Notes: a model not told the origin generated them from the sequence alone. Positions 10,236 through 50,303 are shown, numbered from the stretch's first letter. The stretch: DNA of 64,000 nucleotides from an uncultured delta proteobacterium (GCA_963823335.1 CAWGLD010000004.1:68382-132381); one strand, 5' to 3'. Made by a program: numbers and translations.

Positions 10236-10946
10236 TCAGTCCGCCTGGACGACAAATGGACCTTCCGGAAAGCACTTTTTGCAGGGAGCATATCCTTCCC
10301 AGAAAGCTTCCCAAAGACTGGAAAAGAAAATTCTGTTCGCTCTGTTGGTTTGCAACCCGAATGGACAAGCCTCCCGATGAAATCGTCTGGATCGTTTATT
10401 GGCAAGGAGATTCAGCGCCTGTGCCTCCCATCCACGCCACATACCCTGTTTTCCTTGCATGGCAAGGCGCTGGGATTTTAGAAACAAATCATGATAACGA
10501 TGATTGGGAGGCGTGAACAAACAGTATGCCCATCCTTGCTCAAGCATCACCTTATTGATAAAAATCCTTTCGTGTGTATAGACATAGACAAGCCCTCTGC
10601 CGTAGCGATCCGATTTCTCTTCGCCGTAAGCTATATATACGTCTCGATTCCCCAGGAGTCGTGCATTATTATTTTTTGCTTCGATGCCAAAGGGCTCCAC
10701 GCTCCCGTTTCCGTTGTGTACTTCGGGGGCATTGATTCCAATGTACCGCACAAACTGGTTGTTATCCAAGAGAAGCGTATCCCCGTCCACGACACGCTTT
10801 ACATGGTGCGCATCCATGGCCGGAACTAGCGCCGGCGAAAAAAGAATTATCAGGCATATCAAAAAAGATGAACGTCCAACATCGAACATCGAACGTCCAA
10901 TTATGAATAAAAAAAACAATACCGAATTATTTCTGTTTCTTTTCAT
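10236..10946 (-). CDS. secreted thermonuclease (SNase-like) fused to a C-terminal Ada-type zinc-binding domain
   Basis: SNase core VVDGDTLLL...YIGINAPE...RYGRGLVYVY; C-terminus FHREACPFG..N...F.S...A...GYAPCKKC matches Ada_Zn_binding. The 5' end overlaps repeat R3; start may be ATG 10946 or the ATG inside the repeat arm (MFDVGRSSFLICLIILFSPALVPA signal-like). Confidence 0.75.
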   Translation of the reverse strand: MKRNRNNSVLFFLFIIGRSMFDVGRSSFLICLIILFSPALVPAMDAHHVKRVVDGDTLLLDNNQFVRYIGINAPEVHNGNGSVEPFGIEAKNNNARLLGNRDVYIAYGEEKSDRYGRGLVYVYTHERIFINKVMLEQGWAYCLFTPPNHRYHDLFLKSQRLAMQGKQGMWRGWEAQALNLLANKRSRRFHREACPFGLQTNRANRIFFSSLWEAFWEGYAPCKKCFPEGPFVVQAD

Positions 10947-11096
10947 CGGTTTTGATGCTCGTGCCGAAAATCTCAATTCTTCCGTTTCTTCCTTTCGCAG
11001 TTAAACACATTGAAGAACCTCGCAGCAAGCTACGGGGTTAGCGCTCGCTTTTTCGGTTCAAAATTCGATGTTGGACGTTCGATGTTCGATGTTCAA
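10861..11096 (+). mobile_element. IVS-like element, family A, copy R3 (carries a family C repeat in its interior)
   Basis: Left arm 10861-10905 AAAAAAGATGAACGTCCAACATCGAACATCGAACGTCCAATTATGAAT and right arm 11059-11096 AAAATTCGATGTTGGACGTTCGATGTTCGATGTTCAAA are complementary. Confidence 0.7.
11010..11061 (+). repeat. repeat family C, copy 2
   Basis: TTGAAGAACCTCGCAGCAAGCTACGGGGTTAGCGCTCGCTTTTTCGGTTCAA, aligns with 3660-3713. Confidence 0.7.
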
Positions 11097-15447: not shown

Positions 15448-17646
15448 CTAAAATTTCAATCTGGCATAATAGGTCTTTTCCGAGGCTTTCCTGGCCTCAC
15501 CCAATGTCCGAATCCCCATATCCGCTAGCAGCGAGACAAGTTTGAGGAAAATATTAGCCGTCATAAGGGCATCCCCCATGGCGGTGTGGCGACCGGCCAC
15601 GTTGACGCCCAATCGGCCGGCAATGGCGGACAAGGCATGATCATCATGAGCGGAGTGGGCCACTGCTGATAGTAACAGCGTATCCAAAACAGGTTGGATA
15701 AATTTTACACCCGTTCGGTTCTCACACATCTGGAGCATGCGCATATCAAAGGCTGCATTATGAGCGACCAATATGGTCTCCTCCGAAAATTTTAAAAAAT
15801 TCGGCAGAACCACATCGATGGTGGGTTGGTTTTTCACCATATCGTTGTCGATCCCATGAATATGGGTCGAAGATGCTGGTATACTTCGTTGGGGATTAAT
15901 CAATTGATTGAATGGTTCTTCAGTTAGAATGCGTCCGTTAATAATTCGGAGTGCGCCGATGGATATTATTTCGTCACCGCTGGAAGGATCCAGACCAGTG
16001 GTTTCTGTATCAAAAACAGTATAGGCAAGCTCGTTTAACAAGTGCGAATCCAAGTTGGGGCTTTGACCGGGTTGATTGAATAAATCAAAGGCATAGAATT
16101 CGGGCCGACTTTCGGGTAGTACCGAGGCACGACGTATGGCTTTCTGTTCCTGGGGTCTAAATAGGGGTACATGCATGCGCAGGAAAGAACGCTTTTCACC
16201 ATGATGCTCACGATAGGCCCATATTTCAATTCCATGATGTTCTAAAATCTCCTTGGGATGCAAGGGCATACGCTCATCTAAAAAAGCAAGCTGCATGTTT
16301 TCCCACTGTCGTATTTTCTCAATACTTATGGGTTTACCTGCCCACATAATATCCACAAAAGCGAATTCGTTCTCAAGTGAGTATTCACACCGATAGTGTG
16401 TGACTTCGGCCTCTTCACTAATCCGTTGTAGAAAAAACAAAAGGACCATCATAATAGCATAGGTATCTACCTTAATCCACGACTCCGCCGAATCAAATTT
16501 AAAGCTTAAATCAATATCCAGCTTTGCGGCTGCCCTTTTTTGCAGCGCCACCAGCAGTTCACTGATGGTGATCGGCATTGTGGGCCAGTGTTTGTGCGTC
16601 TGTTTGAATGTTTGGTTACCCTCCCGCTGAATTAACTTCTCCAGTGATTGAGACTCCGTATAAATGATCTCCAGCAACTGTTGCTGTTGTGAACTGCTTA
16701 CATTGGGGTATTCACGTATTACCTCAATAGCTGATTTGACGCTGGCAACAGAGTGCCGGACTTCTTGCTGAAAAGATTGCAACAAAAATCCAGATCGAGC
16801 TTCACCTCGTAATTCCTGGGTAATTTCATTGAAGATGATAACAAAACCGGAGAACTCACGTTGGGAGCTCAATATGGGCGATGCCTCCGCTCGCAGCAAC
16901 CGATTGGCCAAATCAGTGATTACAAAATTGGAACTTACATTTTCCTCATTTTTTTCAAGTCGCTGATGGATTTCCTCCAGGGCATACTGAAGAATGTTCC
17001 CCTCAACAAAATCTGAGACAGGCCGGCCGATGCCAATGTGAACTTTACCGGACGTTGTCGCTTCTACTGAATCGGTTTTACCTGTTGAGGCGGAGGGGCG
17101 CCCGATGGTAGCCTTTTCACTGAAAAACCGTTTGGCCTGGGAATTGTAAAGAATGATTCGACTATCCTTGTTGCAAATCAATACCGCGTCCGGCAGTTCT
17201 GCCATGATGGCAGCTAAAATGTTCTTTTCCTCCTCCAACTCTGCCTTGGCCACCTGGACGCGCTTAAAAACGCTCTTCTCAAGGGTTTCATATTTTTCTG
17301 CGGCTGAATTAACCTGTTGAATAAGATGCCCCATTCCAAAAGCAGTGTCCATCTGAATGCGATGATGTGGATTGGCGGTGTAAATCAGTGCGATTTCTTC
17401 AGATACTTTGGACAGCGGGATAACCAGTTTTAAGAATATGCGTGCCAGAAAAAATCCAAGCAACGCGATTACAGCCAGGCAAAAAACCAAGACCACGGGG
17501 ATATAGGCACAAATACCCTCCTGGTTGGCGAAATTACTATGATTTGCGGATTGATGCCAGAAAAGCATCATCAATGCAAGTCCCAGCAAGGCTGCTACAC
17601 TGAGGGACATGCACAGGGCCCACCAGATTTTGTTTTTATTTTTCAT
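15448..17646 (-). CDS. membrane sensor (2 TM, linker, PAS-like region) fused to a C-terminal DnaQ/epsilon-type DEDDh 3'-5' exonuclease
   Basis: ExoI FDTETTGLD, ExoII AHNAAFDMRML, ExoIII HTAMGDALMTANIF in the last ~190 aa; two N-terminal hydrophobic helices; the central region weakly resembles DHp/CA of histidine kinases. Confidence 0.8.
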   Translation of the reverse strand: MKNKNKIWWALCMSLSVAALLGLALMMLFWHQSANHSNFANQEGICAYIPVVLVFCLAVIALLGFFLARIFLKLVIPLSKVSEEIALIYTANPHHRIQMDTAFGMGHLIQQVNSAAEKYETLEKSVFKRVQVAKAELEEEKNILAAIMAELPDAVLICNKDSRIILYNSQAKRFFSEKATIGRPSASTGKTDSVEATTSGKVHIGIGRPVSDFVEGNILQYALEEIHQRLEKNEENVSSNFVITDLANRLLRAEASPILSSQREFSGFVIIFNEITQELRGEARSGFLLQSFQQEVRHSVASVKSAIEVIREYPNVSSSQQQQLLEIIYTESQSLEKLIQREGNQTFKQTHKHWPTMPITISELLVALQKRAAAKLDIDLSFKFDSAESWIKVDTYAIMMVLLFFLQRISEEAEVTHYRCEYSLENEFAFVDIMWAGKPISIEKIRQWENMQLAFLDERMPLHPKEILEHHGIEIWAYREHHGEKRSFLRMHVPLFRPQEQKAIRRASVLPESRPEFYAFDLFNQPGQSPNLDSHLLNELAYTVFDTETTGLDPSSGDEIISIGALRIINGRILTEEPFNQLINPQRSIPASSTHIHGIDNDMVKNQPTIDVVLPNFLKFSEETILVAHNAAFDMRMLQMCENRTGVKFIQPVLDTLLLSAVAHSAHDDHALSAIAGRLGVNVAGRHTAMGDALMTANIFLKLVSLLADMGIRTLGEARKASEKTYYARLKF

Positions 17647-17918
17647 TGAGGTTTTGTGAGCAAATTGGTTACCGCATCGATAATCTGTTGGTTGAAAAAT
17701 GGTTTGGTGATGGTTTCATCCGCCCCTAACACCATTCCCTTGGCAATATCAACATCACGCCCTTTGGCTGTCAAGAAGATTATTTTGAATTGTAAAAAAA
17801 TCGATCTAGGCGGTTCGATGTCCATCTTTGCGATTGTCCGATAGCCTCTTGACCACTTGACCCCTCTAGTTATATTGTATCTTACAAAAAGTGATCGTAT
17901 GTATTTCACCATGACCAC
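17643..17918 (-). pseudogene. truncated response-regulator receiver (only the C-terminal ~45 aa are homologous)
   Basis: ..KIIFLTAKGRDVDIAKGMVLGADETITKPFFNQQIIDAV.. parallels residues ~80-127 of the 20335-20700 receiver; 17716-17786 vs 20399-20469 differ at ~5 of ~71 nt; phospho-acceptor Asp region absent; stop overlaps the exonuclease ATG (ATGA). Confidence 0.7.
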
Positions 17919-26026: not shown

Positions 26027-27004
26027 TTATGTGTTCGTATTGAAGGGGGATTGGAAAATATTTTTGAGGTGTGGGTTGACAAGCGTTTGGTTGAGAATGT
26101 CAACCTGCTCTCTATAACCAGCCTCGTTTTTGAATGACATATTCAGTTTCAGGAACGATCCTTCGAAATATTCAGGGGGGGACAAGCTGATACTGCTGCC
26201 CAGATTAAGCATGCGAAGGCTACGTTGGAAAGTTTCTTCAGCAAGTGAAAGATTCGGGAAACGCCGCCTGCGTAAATTCGATCTCACGACCCTTGTTTTC
26301 TGCAGGTTGTCCAGGTCCTTGTCAGCCAAGACATCCGGGATACCTTCGGACAACAGTACCGCATGGGTACTGAGCTGCTCACGATGACAGATTTCTTTGA
26401 GGTGGGAGCAGATTTCCTTCTGCTTGTTCTGGTTCAACTTGAGTTGTACAAAAAACCTGGCCAACAAAATTCCCGTAGCTGTATCGAATTCCTGGAGTTC
26501 GGCGGCTATATTCAGAGATATTCTGTTCTGATAAACCCCTTCCTGAATCGGATGGGGAAGTCGACAGATCCCAAGGATTTTTTCGATATGATGAAGGTTT
26601 TCGGGCAACCCGAGATTTTTCGCCTCTGTAGACAAGCCTTCCCGGTCTTCCGTGTACGCTTCCAGCAATAACAGCGCCCGGGAAATCTCCAGGAGATCGA
26701 GTTTTCTCTGTGAAAGGTTGTCGGCAATGGCTATGCGGATGCATTCGAGGGGTAAACTTGCTGCAGGCATCACTTTGGCCGGAATTTGCCGATGATTCAG
26801 TTTCTGCATGGCCTCAATTCGACGAAAGCCTGCAACGATACGATATCGGTGGTCCTTATTTTGAACAAGGACAGGCGGGTTGATCAGACCCACGTGTCCT
26901 ATGGATTTGGCGATATTTTCCCCGGCTCCCGACGTGCTGATTCTGTAGGTTTCGTCTTCTAGGTCAATGACGGCCAAATCCAGAACCATCACCCTATAGG
27001 ACAT
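26027..27004 (-). CDS. ParB/sulfiredoxin-fold N-terminal domain protein (ParB-like nuclease domain)
   Basis: ..[27 protein letters not shown].. ParB-box; the rest is helical with no recognisable HTH; start overlaps the purC 3' end by 11 nt. Confidence 0.65.
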
Positions 27005-27890
27005 CGTCCCTGCCCGTCAGCTGGGTTAAAGCCTCCTTGTATTTCTGGTAGGTTTTCTGCACAACGGTGTCCGGAAGCGGTGGAGGGGGCGGCTCCTTTT
27101 TCCATTCGATGGCGCTCAGATAATCTCTCAGATATTGTTTGTCAAAGCTCTTCTGAGGGCCACCCGGGGCATACGTCTCCTTGGGCCAGAACCTGGAAGA
27201 ATCCGGTGTGAGAACTTCATCGATGAGGATAATTTCATTTCCGATTTTCCCGAACTCAAATTTCGTGTCGGCAATGATAATCCCTTTCTGATCAGATATT
27301 TCAGAACCCTTGTTGTATATTGCAAGACTGAGACGTTTGACTTCCCCGGCAATGTCTTTTCCCACCATCCGGGCAGCCTCATCAAAATCGATATTGATGT
27401 CATGAAGTCCGATGTCTGCTTTGGTGGATGGCGTAAAGATGGGTTCGGGGAGTTTGTCCGACTCCTTGAGGCCCTCCGGCAGGCCAATACCGCAGACACT
27501 GCGGTTTTCCTGGTAAGATTTCCATCCGGATCCGGAAAGATAGCCCCGGACGACACACTCGATGGACAGGGGTTCTGTTTTCCGAACCAGCATGCTTCTG
27601 CCGTGCAATTGTTCGGCATAGGGCCTGCAGACGGCAGGGTATTCAGCGACATCACTTGAAATAACATGATTGGGCACCAGGGCCTTCATGGCCTCGAACC
27701 AGAACAAAGATATCTGGGTCAGGATAATGCCCTTCCCCGGAACCGGATCGTTCATGATGACATCGAATGCGGAAATCCTGTCTGTTGCCACCATCAACAA
27801 GGCATCATCCAGGTCATATACATCACGCACCTTACCCCTTTTCAACAGTTTCAAATCTTTAAAGTCTGTTTCCAGAACATGTTGACGCAT
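26994..27890 (-). CDS. purC: phosphoribosylaminoimidazole-succinocarboxamide (SAICAR) synthase
   Basis: ..[22 protein letters not shown].. and ..[10 protein letters not shown].. motifs; start set at ATG 27890. Confidence 0.9.
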
Positions 27891-27913
27891 GATCACAATA
27901 CCTTTCAATTCAA

Positions 27914-28264
27914 TTATTTTTTGAACACGTCAATGAATTTAAGCAGAATCATCCGTTCCTTATCATTGATCTTTGAAAACTGGATACCCGCCTCATAAGT
28001 ATCTTTGGCTCTTTCTTTCAGGAAAATGATCTGCCCTTCAATATTGACGAGTTCTTCTTCGATGCCGATGGTTATCGAAATACCTGTCTGGGGATCAATG
28101 CGTTTGTAGGTTTCGAGCAACATGCCGGATTCCGACACATTGAGTGTTCTGCCCATACCCTGATGACATGGCTCACCGTCTTCACCCATACAGACATAAC
28201 TCAGAAGGTTCGTCGATTCTACCCGTATAGATTTACGTTTATCGCTGTCATTCATCCTGTCCAC
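27914..28264 (-). CDS. PilZ domain protein (c-di-GMP receptor type)
   Basis: RKSIRV (RxxxR) and [10 protein letters not shown] (D/NxSxxG) PilZ motifs; 116 aa. Confidence 0.75.
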
Positions 28265-28288
28265 CTGTCGTTGGGATGATTCTGTCCA

Positions 28289-29458
28289 TTAGCTCATCAA
28301 TTCTTTCTGCCGATTGTTCAGTACCTTTGTTAAGAAATGAGTGCATGTCGCGATATTATCAATAAAATTCTTGAAGGAGGTGGAAATGTTGTCGTATTCC
28401 TGTTGGATGATATCCGGGTTAAGTGTCTGAATTTTCAGGTCTTTTGAGGCCAGCACAGAGGCAAATTCAGGTTCATGACCAAGATCTAAAAATGGTATAT
28501 AACCAAAAAAATCATCACGTTCCAGATGCGCTAAAGGCACAAAACCATCATCGGTTTTCTGAACCAGCGATGCTTTGCCGTGTTGAACACGGAACAAGCG
28601 TCTCTCATCGTCGCCCTGCTCGATTACCTTCTGGCGATACTTCAGATAGTCATCAAGATCTATCTGTTTCGTTGAATACTCCACCACTCGATCGGTGACA
28701 TGACGCAATCTCCTGTCCAGGCTCATGACAAATGCCTTGAACTCGTATGACATCTTAGAATATTCCTGGGCAAGCCGTTGTGAGTCGAGAACACCCAGTT
28801 GAACATCTCCCACGGCCTTGGCGGAATACATCCGCGAATGATTTCGCACCAGGAAAGACGATATACTGCCGACAAAGGAGCCGTTTCCGATCTGACAAAG
28901 TGTCAAAGGTCCTGAATCGGTCTCCCTGATGATATCAATGACACCCTCGAGAACCACCCATACCCAGTTGCCGTGTCTACCCTCTTGCAGTATGGTATCA
29001 CCGTCATGAAACTCTTCTTCATCGACAACATACATATAATCGATCAAAGGGCCCCAAATAATCGGAAGCGCTGCACCGAAATCAGAATACTTGGCTGTTC
29101 GAGTGTCCACGGAGACCGGCCCCAGTCTTTCGGTGTGACCTTCGTCCAGCATCTTCAGACCATCCAAAATGATCCCCATGCGTCCTTTGGTGATGACCCT
29201 TTCACTCGTTACACGCGTCGTTGTAAACTCAAATTCACCATCGGTCCAGCCAAACAGCGAGTAAAGCGCATCCAGTCCCGAAAGCATGCCGCAAGAAGCA
29301 TTGATTGGATTCCCGTTGTCAAAATAAATAATGCCGGGTTCGGGCGCATATGGGCTTATGATCCGTAATATACCTGAACTACCGTTCCCGCCCAGAAGCT
29401 GCATGAGATCGCCGAGGTTTAGAAATTTGATGTTTCCCTTTAGTTTCTCTTCTTTCAT
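28289..29458 (-). CDS. DUF4388 (PATAN-like) domain protein with two cyclic-nucleotide-binding domains
   Basis: N-terminus GNIKFLNLGDLMQLLGGNGSSGILRI...IYFDNGNPINA..GLDALYSLFGWTDGEFEF fits DUF4388; two CAP-type cNMP folds follow. Confidence 0.7.
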   Translation of the reverse strand: MKEEKLKGNIKFLNLGDLMQLLGGNGSSGILRIISPYAPEPGIIYFDNGNPINASCGMLSGLDALYSLFGWTDGEFEFTTTRVTSERVITKGRMGIILDGLKMLDEGHTERLGPVSVDTRTAKYSDFGAALPIIWGPLIDYMYVVDEEEFHDGDTILQEGRHGNWVWVVLEGVIDIIRETDSGPLTLCQIGNGSFVGSISSFLVRNHSRMYSAKAVGDVQLGVLDSQRLAQEYSKMSYEFKAFVMSLDRRLRHVTDRVVEYSTKQIDLDDYLKYRQKVIEQGDDERRLFRVQHGKASLVQKTDDGFVPLAHLERDDFFGYIPFLDLGHEPEFASVLASKDLKIQTLNPDIIQQEYDNISTSFKNFIDNIATCTHFLTKVLNNRQKELMS

Positions 29459-29465
29459 CGAATAC

Positions 29466-30080
29466 CTACTGTGCCCATTTTAATTCTTTTTGCAAAGCTT
29501 TTAACGTCATCTGAATGCATTCTTTCAGCGTATCTCCGACTCCGGTGCCCTTGGTGGCGCTACCCGGAAATGCGGGGACCTTTAACTGGCGATTGAGGTC
29601 TTTCTCCATTTGCTCTATCGACATCAAGGGAATGCCTTCATCCGCCAGATCTCTTTTATTGTATTGAAGCACCAGCGGTATTTTGAAGATATTCAGGCCG
29701 TACTCCTTTAAATTCTTCTGCAGGTCTTTGAGAGACAGCATATTTTTTTCTCGTCTGACCTCAAGGGAATCGGCCACGAAAACAATACCATCAACACCCC
29801 TGAGAACCAGTTTACGGGTCGCAGTGTATTGCACCTGCCCTGGTACTGTATACAGCTGCACCTTGATATCACACCCCCTGATCTTGCCAAAACCCATGGG
29901 AAGAAAATCAAAAAAGAGCGTTCGGTCACCTTCTGTGTTAATGGAAACCATCTCACCGGTTATCTGTTTCGAATACTTTTTGAATACATATTCCAGATTC
30001 GTGGTTTTGCCACCACGGCCCGGGCCATAATAGACAATCTTGCATTCGATTTCTCTTTTTTTCAGGTTAAATATGGCCAT
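29466..30080 (-). CDS. MglA-like Ras-superfamily small GTPase
   Basis: IVYYGPGRGGKTTNL P-loop, DRTLFFDFLP, LYTVPGQV (MglA-type G3), QYNKRDL (NKxD); start set at ATG 30080. Confidence 0.8.
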   Translation of the reverse strand: MAIFNLKKREIECKIVYYGPGRGGKTTNLEYVFKKYSKQITGEMVSINTEGDRTLFFDFLPMGFGKIRGCDIKVQLYTVPGQVQYTATRKLVLRGVDGIVFVADSLEVRREKNMLSLKDLQKNLKEYGLNIFKIPLVLQYNKRDLADEGIPLMSIEQMEKDLNRQLKVPAFPGSATKGTGVGDTLKECIQMTLKALQKELKWAQ

Positions 30081-30103
30081 ATGGTACGACTCCAAATGAA
30101 GAA

Positions 30104-30136
30104 ATAAAATCGCATAACGATTTTATACAACGCGAC
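30104..30136 (-). repeat. boundary hairpin motif, copy g (GC half-site only)
   Basis: ATAAAATCG-cataa-CGATTTTAT ACAAC GCGAC, 24 nt upstream of the MglA-like start; the AT hairpin faces the gene. Confidence 0.6.
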
Positions 30137-30196
30137 AGGAATTTAGTTGAATTTTTTTTATACCACAATCAACTGTTGCCCAAAAGCCCTTTCTTA

Positions 30197-31102
30197 CTAT
30201 TTGCTCGTGATCTTTATATCAAGACAAAAATCTCCCTGTTTGGGACCGGATTTAATTTCTGATTTAGCGGCTACAGTACCGGACCCGCTGAACATGGCTA
30301 TGGGGGAAAAAAACTGAAGATCTGCTAATGCATCACCATCTTGAATGTGTTCAATGGTTTTAGCATTATTCTTGGAAATAATCAGACTGAGCATATTACC
30401 CGATTGAAAGTTTACGTCAAATTCAACAACCTTGCCTTTTGCAGGTCCCTCATTAAAATAGACGCCGATAGAGCTTATATCGATAAATTCTTCTTCCTCA
30501 GGCTCCTGGAGCGTTTCCTCCTTAATCATCAGCGAAGTGAGATCTCTCTGGATGCCCTTGCTTTTCAGTATCTCCACAAGAAAGAGACGAATTTTCTCCA
30601 ACTGGCCTGGAGAGAACGGCCCGTTTAAGGCCCATTCTTCATATTGATCCGCAGCAGCATTCTCAGAATTGAGTTGGATGTGGCACCGCAATACATTCTT
30701 AGCGGCCACAACCCGATGTGATTCTTTGTCGATCAGTTTCTTGAATTCGATCAATGCCCGCTCAAACTGCCCGAATTTTGCAAGGGCGATTGCCCCTTCC
30801 AGAATCGCTTCTTCTTTACTGTCCGTCTTTGAAAATGAGAACAGATTCTTGATAAGATCCTGGGCTTTTTCCGAAAGCTCAGGTGACGATGGCCCTTTTT
30901 CAACCCGTTGGGTATCTGAATCCAGCAGTCGGATCTTGTTGGCGATGCCTGTAAGGACCTTCTCTTTGTTCTGAATTCTGTCGTGCTCTCGAACCCGTTG
31001 CCCGGCTTCGGTATATTTACCTCTCGCTTCGTCAAGCAGGCCATGTTTTTTATAAAGGTCGGCCTCCTGAAGCAGCCTCTTGATGGATTCCTTAAATCCC
31101 AT
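30197..31102 (-). CDS. hypothetical protein, helical/TPR-like N-terminal part and PilZ-like beta-barrel C-terminal part
   Basis: Intact ORF with GAGGGA RBS before ATG 31102; the domain assignment is a weak by-eye impression. Confidence 0.5.
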   Translation of the reverse strand: MGFKESIKRLLQEADLYKKHGLLDEARGKYTEAGQRVREHDRIQNKEKVLTGIANKIRLLDSDTQRVEKGPSSPELSEKAQDLIKNLFSFSKTDSKEEAILEGAIALAKFGQFERALIEFKKLIDKESHRVVAAKNVLRCHIQLNSENAAADQYEEWALNGPFSPGQLEKIRLFLVEILKSKGIQRDLTSLMIKEETLQEPEEEEFIDISSIGVYFNEGPAKGKVVEFDVNFQSGNMLSLIISKNNAKTIEHIQDGDALADLQFFSPIAMFSGSGTVAAKSEIKSGPKQGDFCLDIKITSK

Positions 31103-31139
31103 TATTTCCCTCATTATCGTATACGTCGCTCAACGATTA

Positions 31140-38522: not shown

Positions 38523-39004
38523 TTAAGCAGTGCCACACACATGGCACCAATCCCTTCGCCTTTTCCAAAACAACCAAGTCCCTCATGTGTCGTGGCCTTA
38601 ACATGCATACATGTGGCCGGAACCTCTAATGCATCGGCCATGTTCGACTGCATCTCATCCAAATAGGGTGCGAGCCTTGGTGACTCCGCTATGATAACGG
38701 CATCGGCATTCATAAGTGAAAAACCGTTCTTTTCCAAAAGACGCCCGGTCTTTCTCAACAAGTGAAGACTGGACACGTCTTTGTACTGCGGGTCTGTATC
38801 GGGAAAGAGCCGGCCGATATCTCCCAAATGTGCGGCTCCCAGCAATGCATCGATCACCGCATGAATCAGCACATCCGCATCTGAATGCCCCAGCAACCCT
38901 TTTCCATAGGGTATATCGACACCACCCAGTACCAGTTTTCTTCCCTGGGTCAATTGATGTACATCATAACCCATGCCGATTTTTATCACAGATAAAATCC
39001 TCAC
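38504..39004 (-). CDS. ispF: 2-C-methyl-D-erythritol 2,4-cyclodiphosphate synthase
   Basis: GMGYDVHQL, LLGHSDADVLIHA, ATTHEGLG motifs; GTG start overlapping the upstream TAG by 1 nt. Confidence 0.9.
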   Translation of the reverse strand: MRILSVIKIGMGYDVHQLTQGRKLVLGGVDIPYGKGLLGHSDADVLIHAVIDALLGAAHLGDIGRLFPDTDPQYKDVSSLHLLRKTGRLLEKNGFSLMNADAVIIAESPRLAPYLDEMQSNMADALEVPATCMHVKATTHEGLGCFGKGEGIGAMCVALLKEGLED

Positions 39005-39909
39005 TACTTAATTCCCGTAATATTGAAAATTTTTACAGGCTGGTATTTTCCTTTTGCATTAATAGGATTGAGTGCATCCATCGTAAATAACGCGTGGACT
39101 TCCTTGAGGGTATTTTCCGATATGATGATCTGCCCAGCTTTTGCGGCGGAACAAATTCTTGAAGCTGTGTTTACCGTATCTCCAATAACAGAATAATTCA
39201 TGGTTTGGGTTGAACCGATATAGCCGGCTACCAGACTCCCGGTGTTGATCCCGATGCCGATTTTGATTTCCTTCTGACCTCTTGCCCTCAAAGAAGTGTT
39301 GAAATTCACGAGTTCTCTTTGAATATCGATGGCTGCAAAGCATGCTCTGGCGGCATCGTCTTCATGGGTCACCGGGGCACCCCATATGACCATCATGGCA
39401 TCACCGATAAACTTGTCGACCGTGCCCTCATGCCGGAAGACGATATCCACGATTATTTCGTAGTGTTCGTTCAGTATTTGCAGTACTTCTGCAGCAGGGA
39501 TATCTTCGCTCATGGCTGTAAAATCGCGTATATCGACAAACATCACGGTGGCTGTACGATTTTCGCCACCCTTTTCAACGGTCAGGCTGCCGGAAACAAC
39601 CATCTCGGCCAGATCCGGAGAGAGTAAGCGCTGAAATCTCTCCCGGGTAGCTATCTCCTTGAGGCTCCGCTCTTCGGCTTTCTTTCTCTGATTGATGGTA
39701 AATTGCGCATGGGACCCGAAAATGACGAACAGGCAGATAACGATCAGACGCGGCCAGATATCATCAGCTCCGGCACCAAAAAGAATACTGCCGAAACTGT
39801 ATCCGTATGACCCAAACAACGACAGGATGGTATCCAGGATCCAGTATACGCCGGCGATACCCAAGCCGATCAGAACCATTTTATCTGTCAATCCGACGCG
39901 CATTTTCAT
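39004..39909 (-). CDS. membrane-anchored class III adenylate/guanylate cyclase
   Basis: Two or three N-terminal TM helices; CYCc core VMFVDIRDFT..., KFIGDAMMVIWGAP, GINTGSLVAGYIGS, SVIGDTVNTASR. Confidence 0.85.
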   Translation of the reverse strand: MKMRVGLTDKMVLIGLGIAGVYWILDTILSLFGSYGYSFGSILFGAGADDIWPRLIVICLFVIFGSHAQFTINQRKKAEERSLKEIATRERFQRLLSPDLAEMVVSGSLTVEKGGENRTATVMFVDIRDFTAMSEDIPAAEVLQILNEHYEIIVDIVFRHEGTVDKFIGDAMMVIWGAPVTHEDDAARACFAAIDIQRELVNFNTSLRARGQKEIKIGIGINTGSLVAGYIGSTQTMNYSVIGDTVNTASRICSAAKAGQIIISENTLKEVHALFTMDALNPINAKGKYQPVKIFNITGIK

Positions 39910-40135: not shown

Positions 40136-42019
40136 TTGGCCACGAAAGACGAAATTTCCTCCACAGAAAAGCTGCTGGGTCTGATTCGCCAAAAGGAAAA
40201 CAGGGTGGAACCCCCCGCGGAACCGGAACCTTCAAAAAAAAAGCAGCAGCCGACGCAGCCGACAATGCTTTCAACTGTCGTTCCCATGAGAAAAAAAACC
40301 AGCGTCGGTATCGATATCGGCTACCATGAACTCAAACTGGCCATGGTCAACCAGATATCTGACAAGCGTTACGAATTGATCGACTTTATCAGTATCCCCT
40401 ATGAAGACGATATCACATCCAGCAGTTCGAAGTTTCCTCAATTCTTACGCGATACCTTAAATGATTTCTGTGGCAAACATAGAAAAGCTGCTTTGTGGAA
40501 TGCCATATCGTCAGCCAAAGTCGAAACCCGAAATCTCAAAATCCCCAAAGTCTCCAAAAAACAGATTGACAATGCAACGTATTGGACCTTGAAAAAAGAT
40601 TTGTCTTTCAATGAAGACGAAATGGTTTTCGACTACGAAGTTCTCGGCGATGTCGTTGAGGACGGCATCAATAAAATTGAAGTAATGGCCTACATCGCTC
40701 CCCGGCAGGATATCACCCAGCAGAAAAATCTATTTGAAAAGATCGGTTTTCCCCTGACAGGTATCTCCATAGTTCCTTTTGCACTTCAGAATCTGTTTCG
40801 AACCGAGGTGGTTGACACCCTTGGAAAAGATATCTGCAGCCTGTTCATCGGAAGAGACTGGTCAAGAATCGTTATTTATTCCAACGGAAATCTCATCCTT
40901 TCAAGAGGTATCAAAGCCGGAATCCGTAGTATGATCGAAGCTGTTGCCCAAGAAATCAGCAAAAGCAAAATGGACATAGCCCAGCAATCGATTCAACCTT
41001 CCGAAAGCAGCATTTTCGGTATCGAAGAAGAGAGTTACATTCTGGACCTCGACGAAGCCCGGAAGATCTTCTTTGATCACATCACCAATGCTGAGCCGAT
41101 TCGGCTTGAGGAAACCGGTCATGTCCTCAGAGAGCACGATGTATTCGGCATGATTCAACCGGCGCTGGAGCGTCTTGTCAAACAGGTTGAGAGAACCTTG
41201 TCACATTATTATCTCCACTTTAACAAAGAACGTGTAAGCAAGGTCTATGTGTCCGGCCAGATGAGTGTCTACGAACGACTGTTCGTATTCATGAAAGAAC
41301 AGCTCGACATTCCCATCGATACCATGAATCCCTTTTCGATGAAATTAAACTATTTGGGCATTGCCACCATACCCGAAACCCTGTCAGAGAAAGAAGCTTT
41401 TGCTCCAGCCATTGGCATGGCTCTTTCCAATAATTCCCTGACATCAAATTTCATCTACACCTATAAAGACAAGCAACGATACGATAACGCACGCAAGGTT
41501 AACAGGGGCATATTCGCCAGTATTCTTGTTTTTCTGGCCATATGTTTCGGGCTGTTTCTGTGGGGTAACAACCTGATCGATCAGAAAAAATTGCAACTGG
41601 CAAAACTTCAGACAGAGGTTGAAAGTTTCAAACCCCTGGTCAATAAAAACCTCATCATCAATCTGGCAACAAAAACCCAGAATAAGCGTAAGGCCATCAA
41701 ACAACTCGGGGAAAAATATAAGGGCATAGCAATAATAAGTGAGATATCATCCATTACCCCATCCGAAATAAGGTTGCTCAGCATATCAGCCAATATGGGT
41801 CAAAAAAAACAACAAGATGGTCAACCACCCAGGCAACAGCTTGAGATGGAGGGGGTCGTCCTTGGTGACCGTCTTACATTTGAATCAATTCTGGCCGGAT
41901 ATATCGTCAAGCTGAAGGATTCGCCCATGTTTGGGACACCCAGCATTGAAAACAAGTCATTTAAATATCTCGACCACCAAGAAGTGTTGCTTTTTTCAGC
42001 TAAACTTGACCTGGTTTGA
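40136..42019 (+). CDS. type IV pilus assembly protein, PilM-like actin-fold ATPase domain fused to a PilN-like TM/coiled-coil part (MshI-like)
   Basis: PilM-type fold (VGIDIGYHELKLAMV...), a later TM helix (IFASILVFLAICFGLFLW) and a PilN-like C-terminus; TTG start 40136 after GGAG. Confidence 0.7.
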   Translation: MATKDEISSTEKLLGLIRQKENRVEPPAEPEPSKKKQQPTQPTMLSTVVPMRKKTSVGIDIGYHELKLAMVNQISDKRYELIDFISIPYEDDITSSSSKFPQFLRDTLNDFCGKHRKAALWNAISSAKVETRNLKIPKVSKKQIDNATYWTLKKDLSFNEDEMVFDYEVLGDVVEDGINKIEVMAYIAPRQDITQQKNLFEKIGFPLTGISIVPFALQNLFRTEVVDTLGKDICSLFIGRDWSRIVIYSNGNLILSRGIKAGIRSMIEAVAQEISKSKMDIAQQSIQPSESSIFGIEEESYILDLDEARKIFFDHITNAEPIRLEETGHVLREHDVFGMIQPALERLVKQVERTLSHYYLHFNKERVSKVYVSGQMSVYERLFVFMKEQLDIPIDTMNPFSMKLNYLGIATIPETLSEKEAFAPAIGMALSNNSLTSNFIYTYKDKQRYDNARKVNRGIFASILVFLAICFGLFLWGNNLIDQKKLQLAKLQTEVESFKPLVNKNLIINLATKTQNKRKAIKQLGEKYKGIAIISEISSITPSEIRLLSISANMGQKKQQDGQPPRQQLEMEGVVLGDRLTFESILAGYIVKLKDSPMFGTPSIENKSFKYLDHQEVLLFSAKLDLV

Positions 42020-42034
42020 AACGGCCGTTTGGGC

Positions 42035-42604
42035 ATGAAAGCAGGGTCGACAAACAAGATAATGGAAACATCAATGGCTATCAGTAAGCTGCCGACGAAA
42101 AATGTCATGGTCATCATTCTGTTCGGTGGGGGAATCATTTTTTTTGTGCTCCTGTCTATCTTTCCCAACTATATTGCCTACAGCAACATTGAAAATGAAA
42201 TCAATATGCTGAAAAGCCAGATCGAAGAGCAGAAAATCCTTTCCCCTATTTTTTCAGATTTGTCTAAGAAGGCGAGCTTTCAAGATCCGGAAAGCCTTCC
42301 TTTTCCTAAAAAAGAAAAATTATCTAAAAACGAGACCAGTAATATATCAGGCATCATTCAAGACATTATTCTGCTGAACGACTTTAAGCTCAACAGTATC
42401 TTAACCGATGTCGGTGGCTTGATGGATGGGTCTGGGATACTCAAAATAAATATTGAAATTTCTGGAGATTTCATGAATCTTCGGAACTTGATACTTCAAC
42501 TCGGGACCCTGCCCTATCTTGAGCACATTGAAAACATACGTATAGACAACACTACTGACAGACAACTGATCCTGTTGAAGCTCTGGGTCGCTCAAGAGGC
42601 ATAA
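42035..42604 (+). CDS. PilO/MshJ-like pilus assembly protein
   Basis: N-terminal TM, coiled coil, C-terminal alpha/beta domain; position after the MshI-like gene; start ATG 42035 (TTG 42029 possible). Confidence 0.55.
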   Translation: MKAGSTNKIMETSMAISKLPTKNVMVIILFGGGIIFFVLLSIFPNYIAYSNIENEINMLKSQIEEQKILSPIFSDLSKKASFQDPESLPFPKKEKLSKNETSNISGIIQDIILLNDFKLNSILTDVGGLMDGSGILKINIEISGDFMNLRNLILQLGTLPYLEHIENIRIDNTTDRQLILLKLWVAQEA

Positions 42605-42700
42605 AATTGTTTCATGCATTTGTGAAAGGCAAACAGCTGCTGCTTGTATTTAAAACAAGATACTGTCTTCTTGACCCCTTGGATTTTCGGACCCTGAATT

Positions 42701-43222
42701 ATGGCGAATAGAGAAAAAATTATTCTTCTGGTGATGATCATCGTTATCGCTTATGGCGGCTACACCTACTTTTCAAACCCCGGCGCCAAGACCATCATCG
42801 ATAATTCGAAACAAAATCTTTCGGAATTGAAAGATTTCGTCATAGGTGCCGCTACAAATCTTTCCAATGAAACCATATCAGCCGCCGACAGATATATCAT
42901 CGATCAGGCTGAAAAAGTATGGCCACAGGATCCTTTCCTGCAGGTCGGGACACGTCTCACATCCGAACCGTTTAAAGCCAGTGCCGAGGTCACGGTTCAA
43001 ACGGTTCAAATATCCTACACAGGATTTCTACAGACATCCGATGCGCTCATCGCCATCATCAATGGGACCGAGTATGAAACCGGCGATCAACTGAAGGAGA
43101 CAGGCTATTATGTTAAAAAGATATTGCCGGCCAAGATAGTCCTGGGGATTGAAAACAATCCCGACACCATTACCCTTCCATTGGATGAACCCGTTAACAT
43201 GTCATTGGAAGAAAAGGAATAA
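42701..43222 (+). CDS. MshK/PilP-like pilus assembly protein
   Basis: N-terminal TM; C-terminal ..ALIAIINGTEYETGDQLKETGYYVKKILPAKIVL.. motif typical of MshK/GspC-type secretin partners. Confidence 0.55.
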   Translation: MANREKIILLVMIIVIAYGGYTYFSNPGAKTIIDNSKQNLSELKDFVIGAATNLSNETISAADRYIIDQAEKVWPQDPFLQVGTRLTSEPFKASAEVTVQTVQISYTGFLQTSDALIAIINGTEYETGDQLKETGYYVKKILPAKIVLGIENNPDTITLPLDEPVNMSLEEKE

Positions 43223-43231
43223 GCGTTCAAA

Positions 43232-44815
43232 ATGAAAAGACAAATTACATATTCGTTTATCGTTCGATGGATGCTTTCTGTCATTTTCCTGATTTCTTTA
43301 TTTTCCGGCTGTGCGCATAAACAGGAGGAAACAGAGGCTGATCAGTTTTTCAAACAATGGAAAACGACTGCTGAAAAATCCAAAGGCTTTTCTCCTCAGT
43401 CACGAAAACGCACCATCAAACTGCCACCGCGTGTTCTGACCGTCCAAGAAGCTGAAAAAGAGAAATCAGACAAGGAAAAACCGCTTCCAACCAAGAAAAT
43501 TACCATGCGTATGCATCAAACCGATGTGAGCGTACTTCTGAGAGCTTTGACGCGCGCAGTCGGTATAAATCTGATTGTCAACGAAAACGTAAAAGGCACC
43601 GTCAACATCGATATCAAAGATGCTTCCTGGGATCAGGTTTTTCTGAGTATCCTCAATACCCAGGGTCTCTCTTATGCCTGGGATGGGGACATCATTCGTA
43701 TCGTGACCCCGGACGATATAAACAGAAATCTGGAACGCCTGACAACCGATCAGAAAATCAAGGCCCAGGAAAAAGACATGGAACTGGTGGAACCACTGAT
43801 TACCCAGGTCATTGAGGTTGAGTTTTCCGATGCCAACAAACTCAAAGAAAGTCTTTCCGTGTTCCTGTCAGGAAACAAGGAAGGTAAGCCCATCGGATCC
43901 GTCATGGTGGATGAACACACCAATTCTCTTATCATTCAAGCTATTTATAGCGATCTCGAAAGAATGGTTCCGTTGATTGTGGAACTTGACAAACCGACGC
44001 CGCAAATACTGATTGAGGCACATATTGTCCAGGCCACCAAAGATGCATCCATGGAACTCGGTATTCAGTGGGGCGGTCTCTATAACAACGGGGATGTCTG
44101 GGTCACACCGGGAGCGAATTCGACCGGTGTTCTCGGTAACCCCCTCTCAAATGGGGGTATCAATCCCACCTCCGGCAACGTCGCCAATTCGGGCGGCATC
44201 ATCAATCCATTTGAAGGAGCCACAGGTCTGACGCTTGGTTTTGCCCTCGAGGATATCGGTAACGGTATTCTGTCGGCCCAGCTGTCCGCGATGCAACGTG
44301 AAGGAAAGGTCAACATTCTTTCAAGCCCTTCCATTACAACACTTGACAACCAGAAGGCCATTATCGAAAGCGGGAAGGAAGTCCCCTATCAAACCGTAGA
44401 GAACGATGAAGTCAAAATTGAATACAAAAAGGCCGTACTGAGCCTTGAGGTAACCCCGCATGTCATCGGAGGCAATACCCTAAAACTCAATATCAATACC
44501 AGAAAGGACGAACTCGATTTTGTCAACTCCGTGGGAGGGAACCCCGCCATCAGGACCAAGAGTGCCGTCACCAATGTGCTTCTTTTCGATGGGCAGACCA
44601 CCGTTATCGGTGGTCTGAGCGAGGAAAATTCCGACAATACAGACAAAGGGGTGCCGTGGCTCAAAGACATACCGATTTTAGGTTATCTCTTTGCGGGGAA
44701 AAGATCCATCGACAGCCTCGATGAGGTACTGATTTTTATTACGCCCCATATCCTGGGTGAGCAGTTTGTTGACGAAGTGGATGATTCGTCAGCTGAAAGC
44801 ACGCCCGACTCCTGA
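43232..44815 (+). CDS. secretin (PilQ/MshL family), lipoprotein signal
   Basis: LFSGC lipobox; secretin N domains and C-domain (..VPWLKDIPILGYLF..VLIFITPHIL..). Confidence 0.88.
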   Translation: MKRQITYSFIVRWMLSVIFLISLFSGCAHKQEETEADQFFKQWKTTAEKSKGFSPQSRKRTIKLPPRVLTVQEAEKEKSDKEKPLPTKKITMRMHQTDVSVLLRALTRAVGINLIVNENVKGTVNIDIKDASWDQVFLSILNTQGLSYAWDGDIIRIVTPDDINRNLERLTTDQKIKAQEKDMELVEPLITQVIEVEFSDANKLKESLSVFLSGNKEGKPIGSVMVDEHTNSLIIQAIYSDLERMVPLIVELDKPTPQILIEAHIVQATKDASMELGIQWGGLYNNGDVWVTPGANSTGVLGNPLSNGGINPTSGNVANSGGIINPFEGATGLTLGFALEDIGNGILSAQLSAMQREGKVNILSSPSITTLDNQKAIIESGKEVPYQTVENDEVKIEYKKAVLSLEVTPHVIGGNTLKLNINTRKDELDFVNSVGGNPAIRTKSAVTNVLLFDGQTTVIGGLSEENSDNTDKGVPWLKDIPILGYLFAGKRSIDSLDEVLIFITPHILGEQFVDEVDDSSAESTPDS

Positions 44816-44822
44816 TAAGAAC

Positions 44823-46496
44823 ATGGACTACTTCAGTATTCTGAATTTAAATAAAGAACCTTTTTCCAATTCTCCGGACCCAGATTACTTTTTCAACTCC
44901 CAGCAGCATGTCAGCTGCCTACAGAAACTGGAATTGTCCTTGCGGCTCAGACGGGGGTTGAATGTGGTTATCGGGGAAGTCGGGACCGGGAAAACGACCC
45001 TCTGCCGCCAGCTTCTGCGACGGTTTTCCGATGACAGTGAAATCGAGTCACATCTAATCCTAGATCCCCATTTCAGCACGCCCCATGAGTTTCTGCTGGC
45101 CGTGACGGAAATGCTCACCCATGAAAAACACGCCGAAAATATCGATGACTACAAACTGAAAGAACACATCAAAAACACCCTTTTCACCAAAGGCGTCGAT
45201 GAAAACAAAACCGTTATTCTCATCATCGATGAAGGCCAGAAAATTCCGATCTTTTGTCTCGAATTACTGAGAGAGTTTCTCAATTTTGAAACAAACGATT
45301 ATAAATTGCTTCAGATCGCAATTTTTGCCCAGAGAGAATTTGACAATACTCTCAAAAAACATGCCAATTTCGCTGACCGGATAAATCTCTACCACCTGCT
45401 GAAGCCGATGAATTTCAGCGATACACGCGCCATGATCCAGTATCGTCTGAACCAGTCGAGCGCTGCGGCAAAACGACTTGCCCTGTTCACCTACCCTGCC
45501 CTGTGGGCTATTTACCGAGCCACGAATGGCTATCCGCGTAAAATTGTCAACATCTGCCACCGCAGCATTCTGACGATGATCATTCAGAATAAAAGCAAAG
45601 CCAACTGGTTTTTGGTTCAATCGTGCATACGAAGGGTCTTTTCTTCCGGGAAAAAACGATCATGGCAATTTGCAGCCATTCTCATTATTGTTCTCCTCGG
45701 TACCATCTTCACCATCCCTAGATGGCTTCCAAATCAGACCACAACACCCTTTTTAAAAGAAACCGAAGCTTCCAGAGAAACCGATACCGTGTCCATGAAC
45801 CCCGGGCCGGCAGCCCCACCCTTGACAAACGTTGGCTCGGATACCATCGTAACTTCCAATGCCAATGCGACTCCGCAAACAGATGTACCCGTCATGCCGG
45901 ACACGTCAAACCTGTCAGGAGACGTCCCTGAAACCCCGGATAGAGCCCAGCTGCAGGCTTCTGTCACCAGCGTTTCAGATGTGACACCTCCTGAAATACA
46001 CGAAGTCCCCGGAGTACTGGGACAAATTAAAGTCAAGCGGCATGAGACCCTCGGTGGACTCATCCAGACAATTTACGGGGCTTTCCACAAGACCCATCTC
46101 CAGTCTGTCCTCCGGATCAACCCGCACATAAAAAACCCGGACACCATCAGCATAGGTGAAGTGATCCTTTTCCCGGCCATTGCTTCCCATGTGGAAGAGC
46201 CGCCATTGAAACGATGGTGGGTTCAAATTGCCCAGGAGGATACCCTGGAAGCCGTTTTCATGTTTTTACGCCAGCACACCACCGTCGCTCTTTCCGCACG
46301 TCTGGTCCCACATTGGAACCGTTCTTCAGGACTTCAATTTTCAGTGCTTCTTAGCCAGCCTTTTTTTGATGAGGCTTCAGCTGTCAACAAGCTTGAACAT
46401 CTTCTTTCAAGCAGCGGTACAAAAGCAGGGATCGTTTCCGATTGGGACTCACACACTGTTTTTTATGCAAATCCTTATCAAAACACGAACACGTAA
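44823..46496 (+). CDS. ExeA/MshM-like AAA ATPase with TM segment and C-terminal LysM/SPOR-like peptidoglycan-binding region
   Basis: ..FSNSPDPDYFF..., GEVGTGKTT Walker A, IIDEGQ Walker B; C-terminal ..IKVKRHETLGGLIQTIYG..INPHIKNPDTISIGEVILFP.. LysM-like; start ATG 44823. Confidence 0.8.
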   Translation: MDYFSILNLNKEPFSNSPDPDYFFNSQQHVSCLQKLELSLRLRRGLNVVIGEVGTGKTTLCRQLLRRFSDDSEIESHLILDPHFSTPHEFLLAVTEMLTHEKHAENIDDYKLKEHIKNTLFTKGVDENKTVILIIDEGQKIPIFCLELLREFLNFETNDYKLLQIAIFAQREFDNTLKKHANFADRINLYHLLKPMNFSDTRAMIQYRLNQSSAAAKRLALFTYPALWAIYRATNGYPRKIVNICHRSILTMIIQNKSKANWFLVQSCIRRVFSSGKKRSWQFAAILIIVLLGTIFTIPRWLPNQTTTPFLKETEASRETDTVSMNPGPAAPPLTNVGSDTIVTSNANATPQTDVPVMPDTSNLSGDVPETPDRAQLQASVTSVSDVTPPEIHEVPGVLGQIKVKRHETLGGLIQTIYGAFHKTHLQSVLRINPHIKNPDTISIGEVILFPAIASHVEEPPLKRWWVQIAQEDTLEAVFMFLRQHTTVALSARLVPHWNRSSGLQFSVLLSQPFFDEASAVNKLEHLLSSSGTKAGIVSDWDSHTVFYANPYQNTNT

Positions 46497-46760
46497 AAGA
46501 AGGATTCAAGGATTCCAGGGGTCCAGGGTTCGAGTGAGATGAAGTGAGGCATCAGCTAAATGCTTAAAAATTGTAAAGAGTTAAAAGTTGTGGATTGGAA
46601 ACACAGACGATGATATCCGGTGTTTTGGATTATATGAACAAGAAAAAGCTTCAGGGATTAAGAGAGGAGCTTGGGGATGTAGAGAGAATGCTAAAAGCGA
46701 TGATCAAATCCCTGGAAAACAAACACTTCAATCCTTGAATCCTGGACTCCTTGAACCCTT
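46497..46760 (+). mobile_element. IVS-like palindromic element, family B (octamer arms) with a four-helix-bundle gene remnant
   Basis: Left arm AAGAAGGATTCAAGGATTCCAGGGGTCCAGGGTTCGAGTGAG (46497-46538) pairs imperfectly with CACTTCAATCCTTGAATCCTGGACTCCTTGAACCCTT (46724-46760). Confidence 0.7.
46568..46738 (+). pseudogene. 3' fragment of a four-helix-bundle (23S rRNA IVS protein family) gene
   Basis: The open frame reads ..ELKSCGLETQTMISGVLDYMNKKKLQGLREELGDVERMLKAMIKSLENKHFNP*, matching the last two helices of PF05635-type proteins; the N-terminal half is absent. Confidence 0.6.
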
Positions 46761-46812
46761 TCTCCCAACTTGTTGGGAGAAGAACTAAAGAATAAAACAA
46801 GCGAGATAAACT

Positions 46813-49012: not shown

Positions 49013-49042
49013 TAACCAAGAAAACCCAACAAACAGGTTATT

Positions 49043-50266: not shown

Positions 50267-50303
50267 AATCTCTCCGCGATTTTATTTGGCGCGATGTTGT
50301 CGC
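50263..50303 (-). repeat. bipartite boundary hairpin motif, copy h
   Basis: ATAAAATC-tctccgc-GATTTTAT TTGGC GCGAT-gtt-GTCGC; the platform-gene stop TAA (50264-50266) is inside the AT hairpin. Confidence 0.7.

Follow-up and report, generated by a model that had tools for sequence, protein, structure and literature searches.

How are MglA GTPases regulated when their genes are uncoupled from mglB, the gene of the partner protein? This question is raised by a 64,000-nt stretch of DNA from an uncultured delta proteobacterium (GCA_963823335.1 CAWGLD010000004.1:68382-132381; the window hereafter), in which four co-directional genes encode a TPR-like protein with a C-terminal beta-barrel (named TPRx here), an MglA-family small GTPase, a protein joining a PATAN (DUF4388/PatA_N) domain to two cyclic nucleotide-binding (CNB) domains, and a small PilZ protein. 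They are best explained as a signalling cassette that Desulfosarcinaceae-type Desulfobacterales have inherited vertically, with a catalytically complete group-1 MglA switch at its centre, and the cassette is a real, conserved, and uncharacterised variant of a known association. We give about an even chance to the explanation that the four proteins act together on pili or polarity, with MglA at the core of a signalling unit in which TPRx serves as adaptor, the PATAN protein as sensor, and the PilZ protein as receptor.

Gene Content of the Cassette

The four minus-strand open reading frames (ORFs) were confirmed across 27914-31114, and independent gene calls on identical metagenome contigs gave products of 301, 204, 389, and 113 aa. 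The features are the following:

30197-31102, minus strand: TPRx, 301 aa (ORF and gene call, AlphaFold2, Foldseek)
29466-30080, minus strand: mglA, group-1 MglA-family small GTPase, 204 aa (phmmer, motifs)
28289-29458, minus strand: PATAN-CNB-CNB protein, 389 aa (Pfam PF14332 and PF00027)
29141-29440, minus strand: PATAN (DUF4388/PatA_N) domain, residues 7-106 (Pfam, AlphaFold2)
28763-29017, minus strand: CNB-A, residues about 148-232 (alignment to PKG I CNB-A)
28418-28636, minus strand: CNB-B, residues about 275-347 (alignment to PKA RI-alpha CNB-B)
27914-28255, minus strand: single-domain PilZ protein, 113 aa (Pfam PilZ, motifs)

Upstream, the cassette is flanked by mdh, uvrC, and uvrB, and downstream by purC, a ParB_N-like gene, tetR, and acs. 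Between the final base of the mglA stop codon (29466) and the ATG of the PATAN-CNB gene (29458) the distance is 8 nt, the gap from pilZ to purC is 23 nt, and the longest ORF of mglA reaches a TTG at 30095. A terminator scan found no terminator-like sites on the minus strand between the four genes, and neither promoter nor terminator scans gave anything exceeding shuffled expectation.

An earlier sequence-only reading had named the same genes, namely an MglA-type GTPase, a DUF4388/PATAN protein with two domains of the cyclic nucleotide monophosphate (cNMP) type starting 8 nt past the GTPase stop codon, and a canonical PilZ protein with RxxxR and D/NxSxxG motifs, all of which were borne out by ORFs, gene calls, Pfam scores, and motifs. 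Its interpretation is supported in part: the gene identities and the local absence of MglB stood, but a role of the PATAN protein as GTPase-activating protein (GAP) or guanine nucleotide exchange factor (GEF) found no support, and a wiring to cNMP became doubtful.

The MglA GTPase

In phmmer searches of the PDB, the GTPase aligned over its full length with MglA of Myxococcus xanthus (6hjh, E 4.1e-60) and of Thermus thermophilus (3t12, E 1.5e-55), followed by Arl and Rab proteins only at about 1e-4; Pfam matches of the 204-aa protein were limited to generic small-GTPase families. Its P-loop GPGRGGKTT at residues 19-27 fits the G1 pattern GxxxxGK[ST] and is found as GPGR[C/G]GKTT in about 78 orthologues. 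The segment GDRTLFFDF, with the Arg finger beside the G2 Thr, aligns to TDRTLFFDF of 6hjh, forming the counterpart of R53-T54 in M. xanthus, and is kept in 77 of 78 orthologues, while TVPGQ (G3) and NKRD (G4, NKxD) do not vary among about 78 of them. G21, R53, and Q82 are retained. Since the P-loop, DRT, TVPGQ, and NKRD agree with the definition of Wuichet & Sogaard-Andersen 2014 (P-loop, Arg by the G2 Thr, TVPGQ, NKxD), the protein is by this definition a true group-1 MglA. All of the best 120 homologues listed have 204 aa and share 83-94% identity, a much stronger constraint than that on the PATAN-CNB partner, whose best 120 matches show 53-94%.

Position 22 of the P-loop (codon about 30015-30017) is Arg in all of the roughly 78 orthologues and Leu in M. 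xanthus. Arg22 is the minority form, present in about 16 of 131 recognisable P-loops (about 12%) among the 150 best family representatives, in which Leu is dominant. We take this position to be that of G13 in Ras and of the cis-acting Arg48 of hGBP1.

Rosetta-stone fusions of MglA to PATAN, MglB, TPRx, or PilZ were sought among the 150 family representatives, and none was found. Many of these MglA-like representatives (P0361-P0510) have a length of 300-800 aa; the GTPase occupies their N-terminus and is followed by long C-terminal extensions that match none of PATAN, MglB, TPRx, and PilZ.

Conservation and Synteny

With the PATAN-CNB alignment as a query and one genome per species, 80 loci were collected, nearly all labelled Desulfobacterales or unclassified delta proteobacterium, including cultured Desulfosarcina and Desulfatitalea strains; a single metagenome-assembled genome (MAG) carries the label Myxococcota. 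About 75 of the 80 species-level loci contain the cassette, in the order uvrB-uvrC-(mdh)-TPRx-mglA-PATAN/CNB-pilZ-purC-parB-like-tetR-acs. The median gap from mglA to the PATAN gene is 9 nt (interquartile range 7-15, 75 genomes), compared with 102 nt from TPRx to mglA, 51 nt from PATAN to pilZ, 68 nt from pilZ to purC, and -11 nt from purC to the parB-like gene. The four genes stay together despite the loss of neighbours, as mdh is absent from loci L073 and L075 and purC from L055, L063, L067, and L068; pilZ itself is missing in L070 and L071. The cassette is thus stable and its mglA-PATAN junction tight.

The 11-nt overlap between purC and the downstream ParB_N gene (26027-27908 in the window; loci L002-L081) is an observation apart from the cassette, being kept in nearly all of the 65 genomes compared.

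Local Absence of MglB

An M. xanthus MglB sequence, verified against 6h5b_B, was used as the phmmer query against ORFs of at least 50 aa; neither the 64-kb window nor any of the 80 related loci of +/-10 kb gave a match at E<=10. Pfam scans of twenty window proteins, ten from small ORFs and ten from the cyclase and pilus region, gave no Robl_LC7. The statement of the sequence-only reading that no Roadblock-type gene adjoins the GTPase gene was therefore confirmed, and its wider label, a module without MglB, applies at the scale of the window and of the +/-10 kb loci. A second MglA was also sought in the 80 related loci, and none was found.

Published censuses provide indirect clues. Of the 449 MglA genes surveyed, 390 are coupled to mglB and 59 are unlinked to it, and 328 orphan MglB genes were counted (PMC4316618). 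Desulfococcus oleovorans Hxd3 has a single 204-aa MglA beside the PATAN gene Dole_2371 (Wuichet 2014 Table S2) and is without an entry in the orphan-MglB Table S3, while other Desulfobacterales in this census have a 201-aa MglA coupled to MglB. G21 in MglA, on the other hand, co-occurs with mglB in the genome, and the MglA of MglB-less Bdellovibrio has S21 (Milner 2014, PMC3983030). These clues conflict, as the Dole census lists no MglB whereas G21 goes with mglB, and the best explanation of the cassette does not need MglB to be absent from the genome.

The Partner Proteins

The PATAN domain of the 389-aa protein was recognised by PF14332 at residues 7-106 with an E-value of 3.8e-16 (59.7 bits, cut-off 25), and cNMP_binding (PF00027) matched two stretches with an E-value of 1.1e-22, exceeding the gathering cut-off. 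The full-length architecture is common to those listed of its 1611 homologues. In CNB-A, aligned to PKG I CNB-A, the Arg209 of the phosphate-binding cassette is invariant in the orthologues, but the Glu of the cassette is replaced by Ser in nearly all of them and by Asp or Gly in a few, and RTA has become RMY in the lineage of the window. CNB-B is degenerate relative to PKA RI-alpha CNB-B, with Arg changed to Glu and Glu to Tyr (HEPEFASV versus NRP(R/K)AATV), and the EPE/EPD is kept across orthologues. At most one of the two CNB domains could thus bind a cyclic nucleotide in the canonical manner, and the proposed wiring to cNMP is doubtful.

The AlphaFold2 model of the PATAN domain, with a predicted local distance difference test (pLDDT) score of 72, has the topology b-a-b-b-b-a-b-a, and its residues 1-120 gave no match at E<0.1 to the PDB with Foldseek. 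The domain was also considered as a hidden analogue of Roadblock or MglB, and this was rejected, no MglB structure being present among the 50 matches shown and none of these lying below E 0.1. Because the model shows no Roadblock-like or known GAP fold, nothing supports the suggestion that the DUF4388-cNMP protein is a GAP or GEF; there is no positive evidence for a replacement of MglB by PATAN-CNB in this role, which we regard as improbable. A further observation is that the PATAN-CNB architecture exists outside the MglA cassette, since a homologue with 43% identity is encoded without mglA nearby in a high-GC Thermodesulfobacteriota MAG (L077, 8870-11250), where inspection by eye suggested a cold-shock-like gene upstream and, downstream, a protein with C-terminal Cys-rich (zinc-ribbon-like) repeats.

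TPRx is predicted by AlphaFold2 (pLDDT 80) to contain nine helices, a disordered acidic linker, and a six-stranded barrel, corresponding to a TPR-like helical array at residues 3-181, the linker at 194-205, and the beta-barrel at 211-300. The helical part resembles TPR proteins in Foldseek, and TPR hits in Pfam are sub-threshold only; among the homologues listed, 118 of 120 have no Pfam domain and two have TPR_16. The sequence-only reading had described this protein as a TPR-like protein with a PilZ-like barrel, which agrees with the fold but not with motif or profile. The barrel superimposes on the PilZ-containing PP4397 (2gjg) with a root-mean-square deviation of 3.2 A over 91 columns (rank 44, E 0.017), but it has no Pfam PilZ match at E<=0.1 and no RxxxR, and a string DISSIG on its first strand is probably out of register with [DN]xSxxG. 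The barrel as a PilZ domain at the sequence level was rejected after hhalign gave 0.7% probability against the neighbouring PilZ family. It is nonetheless the best conserved part of TPRx, with the motifs VEFDVNFQSGN and IKSGPKQGD[FY]CLDI, which suggests that it is a binding surface, and TPRx is a candidate effector or adaptor of MglA.

The 113-aa PilZ protein scored 31.6 bits with PilZ (PF07238; cut-off 22.5) and contains RKSIR (RxxxR) and NVSESG (NxSxxG), both motifs being kept in 68 of 69 orthologues. It is a predicted stand-alone c-di-GMP receptor with intact motifs.

Cyclase and Pilus Genes in the Window

Genes for a cyclase and for pili lie 8-26 kb from the cassette:

39004-39909, minus strand: class III nucleotidyl cyclase, membrane-anchored (Pfam Guanylate_cyc, E 1.7e-31)
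40136-57601, plus strand: MSHA/T2SS-like type IV pilus cluster (Pfam)

The pilus cluster, on the strand opposite to the cassette and, with its MshE-type ATPase, 9-26 kb away from it, comprises genes for a PilM-like protein, a secretin, an MshM-like AAA ATPase, an MshE-like ATPase (46813-48525), a PilC-like protein, and a sigma-54 activator, besides short ORFs with apparently pilin-like N-termini. Both the cyclase and the MshEN-type ATPase, which the sequence-only reading had brought into relation with the cassette, were confirmed by Pfam, and any tie to it is putative; they fit a theme of second messengers and pili.

The pilus ATPase carries two tandem 24-residue MshEN-type motifs, KFGEMLMEAGLLSEDQLKQAIIDH and KLGQYLVREGIVSGSQVVDIISKQ, at residues 6-29 and 35-58 (about 46828-46986), five residues apart. 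This is presumably the arrangement of c-di-GMP-binding MshE. Between the genes of the pilus ATPase and the PilC-like protein, a gene of the "23S rRNA intervening sequence protein" family (PF05635) at 48567-48944 forms an odd insertion for a pilus operon.

Weighing the Explanations

In the signalling unit proposed above, MglA-GTP would bind the upstream-encoded TPRx, paralleling SgmX of Myxococcus and Bd2492 of Bdellovibrio, and MglA would work with the presumably translationally coupled PATAN-CNB-CNB protein; PATAN domains of cyanobacteria contact the type IV pilus motor. In addition, c-di-GMP input would be added by the small PilZ protein, and the likely output would be where or when type IV (MSHA-like) pili assemble. 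This explanation is supported by the identity of MglA with its intact G1-G4 and Arg-finger motifs, the intact PilZ motifs, the presence of the cassette in about 75 of 80 loci with a median mglA-PATAN gap of 9 nt, the contiguity of the four genes where mdh or purC has been lost, the lack of terminator-like sites between them on the minus strand, and the pilus cluster with its MshE-type ATPase 9-26 kb away. It is further supported by known cases: several phyla have PATAN genes beside mglA, whether mglB is there or not (PMC4316618), the pilus motor is contacted by response regulators of the PATAN type, and the TPR proteins SgmX and Bd2492 are pilus partners of MglA.

Several points weigh against it. 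The genes present, the state of their domains and motifs, and their conservation were observed directly, but every functional link rests on gene context, from which we infer the protein-protein contacts, the pilus output, and any CNB ligand, and the literature holds no experiment on any PATAN-MglA pair. Housekeeping flanks (uvrBC, mdh, purC, the whole of uvrB to acs) are equally syntenic, so that adjacency at the family level is weak, non-independent evidence of function. The gap between pilZ and purC is likewise short, 23 nt in the window and 68 nt in the median, so a functional unit cannot be recognised by short gaps alone. CNB-B and the TPRx barrel are without ligand-binding motifs, and the more distant homologues of PATAN-CNB (L076-L078, about 43% identity) are encoded away from any mglA.

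The strongest competitor of the signalling unit is an ordinary MglA served by a canonical MglB at an unlinked locus, in which case the neighbours would be accessory, as effectors or factors of localisation, and the "missing MglB" a mere matter of gene order. We consider this a real possibility, if a less probable one: linkage to mglB is lacking for 59 of the 449 MglA genes and the same survey counts 328 orphan MglB genes (PMC4316618), the GTPase is catalytically as complete as the group-1 proteins that depend on a GAP, G21 correlates with mglB (Milner 2014), and any locus examined contains one MglA-like gene only. It is opposed by the D. oleovorans Hxd3 census, which lists no MglB at all, and by Arg22 and the 204-aa length, which separate this clade from the 201-aa MglB-coupled MglA of other Desulfobacterales. 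The same census would favour the contrary explanation, a lineage without MglB in which PATAN-CNB (or TPRx) serves as the GAP or GEF of MglA and is gated by a cyclic nucleotide, as Hxd3 has one 204-aa MglA by a PATAN gene and is absent from the orphan-MglB Table S3; so would the empty searches for an MglB-like ORF in the 64-kb window and within +/-10 kb of the 80 loci and for Robl_LC7 in twenty proteins, the mglA-PATAN junction, which suggests translational coupling, Arg22 as a minority variant (16 of about 131 representatives) found in all orthologues, and the phosphate-binding Arg kept in CNB-A. We nevertheless find this quite unlikely. MglA keeps G21, R53, and Q82, and G21 co-occurs with mglB, Bdellovibrio having S21 (Milner 2014); no Roadblock, longin, or other GAP/GEF-like structure in the PDB matched the PATAN model; CNB-B is degenerate, and in CNB-A the ribose-binding Glu is missing; and elsewhere a PATAN gene stands beside MglA and MglB together (Sfum_0316, Dalk_2485), which argues for PATAN as an accessory rather than a substitute. 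Moreover, the absence of MglB covers the window and the +/-10 kb loci and not whole genomes, and the Dole module was equated with the window cassette from gene order and protein length only.

It may also be that the four genes are neighbours by descent and form no functional unit, the GTPase acting elsewhere than on pili, for example in positioning the division site or the cytoskeleton (as for SofG) or in envelope processes. The repair and purine genes around the cassette are indeed equally conserved, the roughly 100 nt between TPRx and mglA could accommodate separate promoters, PilZ is dispensable in two loci (L070, L071), distant PATAN-CNB homologues occur without mglA nearby, and the pilus cluster is at least 9 kb off on the opposite strand. 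Set against these points are the 7-15 nt mglA-PATAN junction kept in 75 genomes, the independent recurrence of PATAN-MglA adjacency in Gemmatimonadetes, Myxococcales, and Syntrophobacterales, and the experimentally known TPR and c-di-GMP-receptor partners of MglA (PMC3983030). We regard mere descent as unlikely. The boldest explanation, an MglB-independent MglA cycle of the Desulfosarcinaceae, in which Arg22 would alter hydrolysis and PATAN-CNB would set the state or output of MglA via a small ligand of CNB-A, appears very unlikely to us; if true, it would provide the first biochemical function of PATAN domains, as regulators of small GTPases.

Significance

PATAN domains are widespread and were seen by mglA/mglB in the surveys of 2006 and 2014, and no PATAN-MglA pair has been studied. 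The cassette offers a compact set of one GTPase and three partners, kept in the complete genomes of cultured Desulfosarcina alkanivorans PL12 (NZ_AP021874.1, at about 1.04 Mb), D. widdelii PP31 (NZ_AP021875.1, at about 1.02 Mb), and D. variabilis (NZ_CP159846.1, at about 4.97 Mb), and its four defined proteins suit binding, GTPase, and ligand assays. If PATAN-CNB regulates or reads out MglA, polarity control by a small GTPase would be linked to second-messenger signalling in non-gliding anaerobes; if MglB is found elsewhere in the carrier genomes, the finding shrinks to an accessory-gene neighbourhood.

Other Observations in the Window

The window contains two identical copies of a 38-nt repeat, TTGGACGTTCGATGTTCGATGTTGGACGTTCATCTTTT, at 5022-5059 (plus strand) and 10863-10900 (minus strand), which are inverted relative to each other and separated by 5.8 kb. 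The first is situated at the 5' end of the ORF 4976-6976 and the second at that of the ORF 10236-10976. Within the repeat, TTGGACGTTC is itself present twice; the element may have a regulatory function or be a small repeat element. Two further ORFs may be gene remnants, namely a 91-aa ORF at 17643-17918 for a truncated response-regulator receiver, whose match to the REC profile is confined to the C-terminal part, and a recombinase fragment at 63280-63843 near the window end.

Comparison with Known Systems

The PATAN-mglA pairing and an MglA without MglB, both pointed out in the sequence-only reading, are prior knowledge. PATAN genes by mglA/mglB were reported by Makarova 2006, as cited in Wuichet 2014; PATAN-mglA neighbourhoods, some with MglB present, are documented in several phyla (Wuichet 2014, PMC4316618); and Bdellovibrio is an MglB-less species in which MglA forms a 1:1 complex with the TPR protein Bd2492, with a c-di-GMP receptor in the same hub (Milner 2014, PMC3983030). 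The neighbourhoods of Wuichet 2014 Table S2 resemble the window in having a PATAN gene directly beside a group-1 mglA, and the Dole_2371 entry of D. oleovorans Hxd3 looks like the window arrangement by gene order and length (MglA of 204 aa, no MglB listed). However, the Wuichet 2014 and Makarova 2006 surveys recorded "PATAN" alone and made no mention of two fused CNB domains, of genes for TPR-barrel and PilZ proteins, or of conservation across the Desulfosarcinaceae, and none of the surveyed neighbourhoods has been characterised experimentally.

With the MglA/MglB systems of M. xanthus and T. thermophilus, the window MglA shares a full-length alignment (E 4e-60 to M. xanthus MglA) and the group-1 hallmarks. 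It differs in that no mglB adjoins its gene, while 390 of 449 MglA genes are coupled, in its Arg22 and 204 aa as compared with Leu22 and 195 aa in M. xanthus, and in its neighbours, which encode PATAN-CNB, TPR-barrel, and PilZ proteins. The Bdellovibrio hub (MglA, Bd2492, RomR, CdgA) is similar in having mglB not beside mglA, a TPR partner, a c-di-GMP receptor, and a link to pili, the absence of mglB from the whole genome being shown only for Bdellovibrio. Its MglA, in contrast, has S21 and is presumed to be GTP-locked, whereas the window MglA keeps G21; its partners are encoded away from mglA, CdgA is a degenerate GGDEF protein and not a PilZ protein, and it includes no PATAN protein.

The PATAN domain can be compared with that of the cyanobacterial PATAN-REC proteins PatA, PixG, PixE, and TaxP1. 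They likewise have an N-terminal PATAN domain, and an interaction of PATAN response regulators with the type IV pilus motor is described in a preprint (bioRxiv 10.1101/2021.06.11.447907), PixE of Synechocystis being reported to interact with the motor ATPase PilB1. The sensor module of these proteins is a phospho-receiver domain fed by chemotaxis-like systems, whereas the window protein has a tandem pair of CNB domains and a gene coupled to that of a small GTPase. In M. xanthus, more than a dozen PATAN domains have been reported, and a study of its MglA/SgmX network lists two PATAN proteins as uncharacterised candidates. SgmX itself is described as a TPR protein and the partner of MglA for pili in M. 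xanthus (PMC7519303). Compared by description, it has 14 TPRs and no beta-barrel, whereas TPRx has about four helical hairpins and a PilZ-like barrel; as a TPR-type protein, TPRx would likewise act downstream of MglA.

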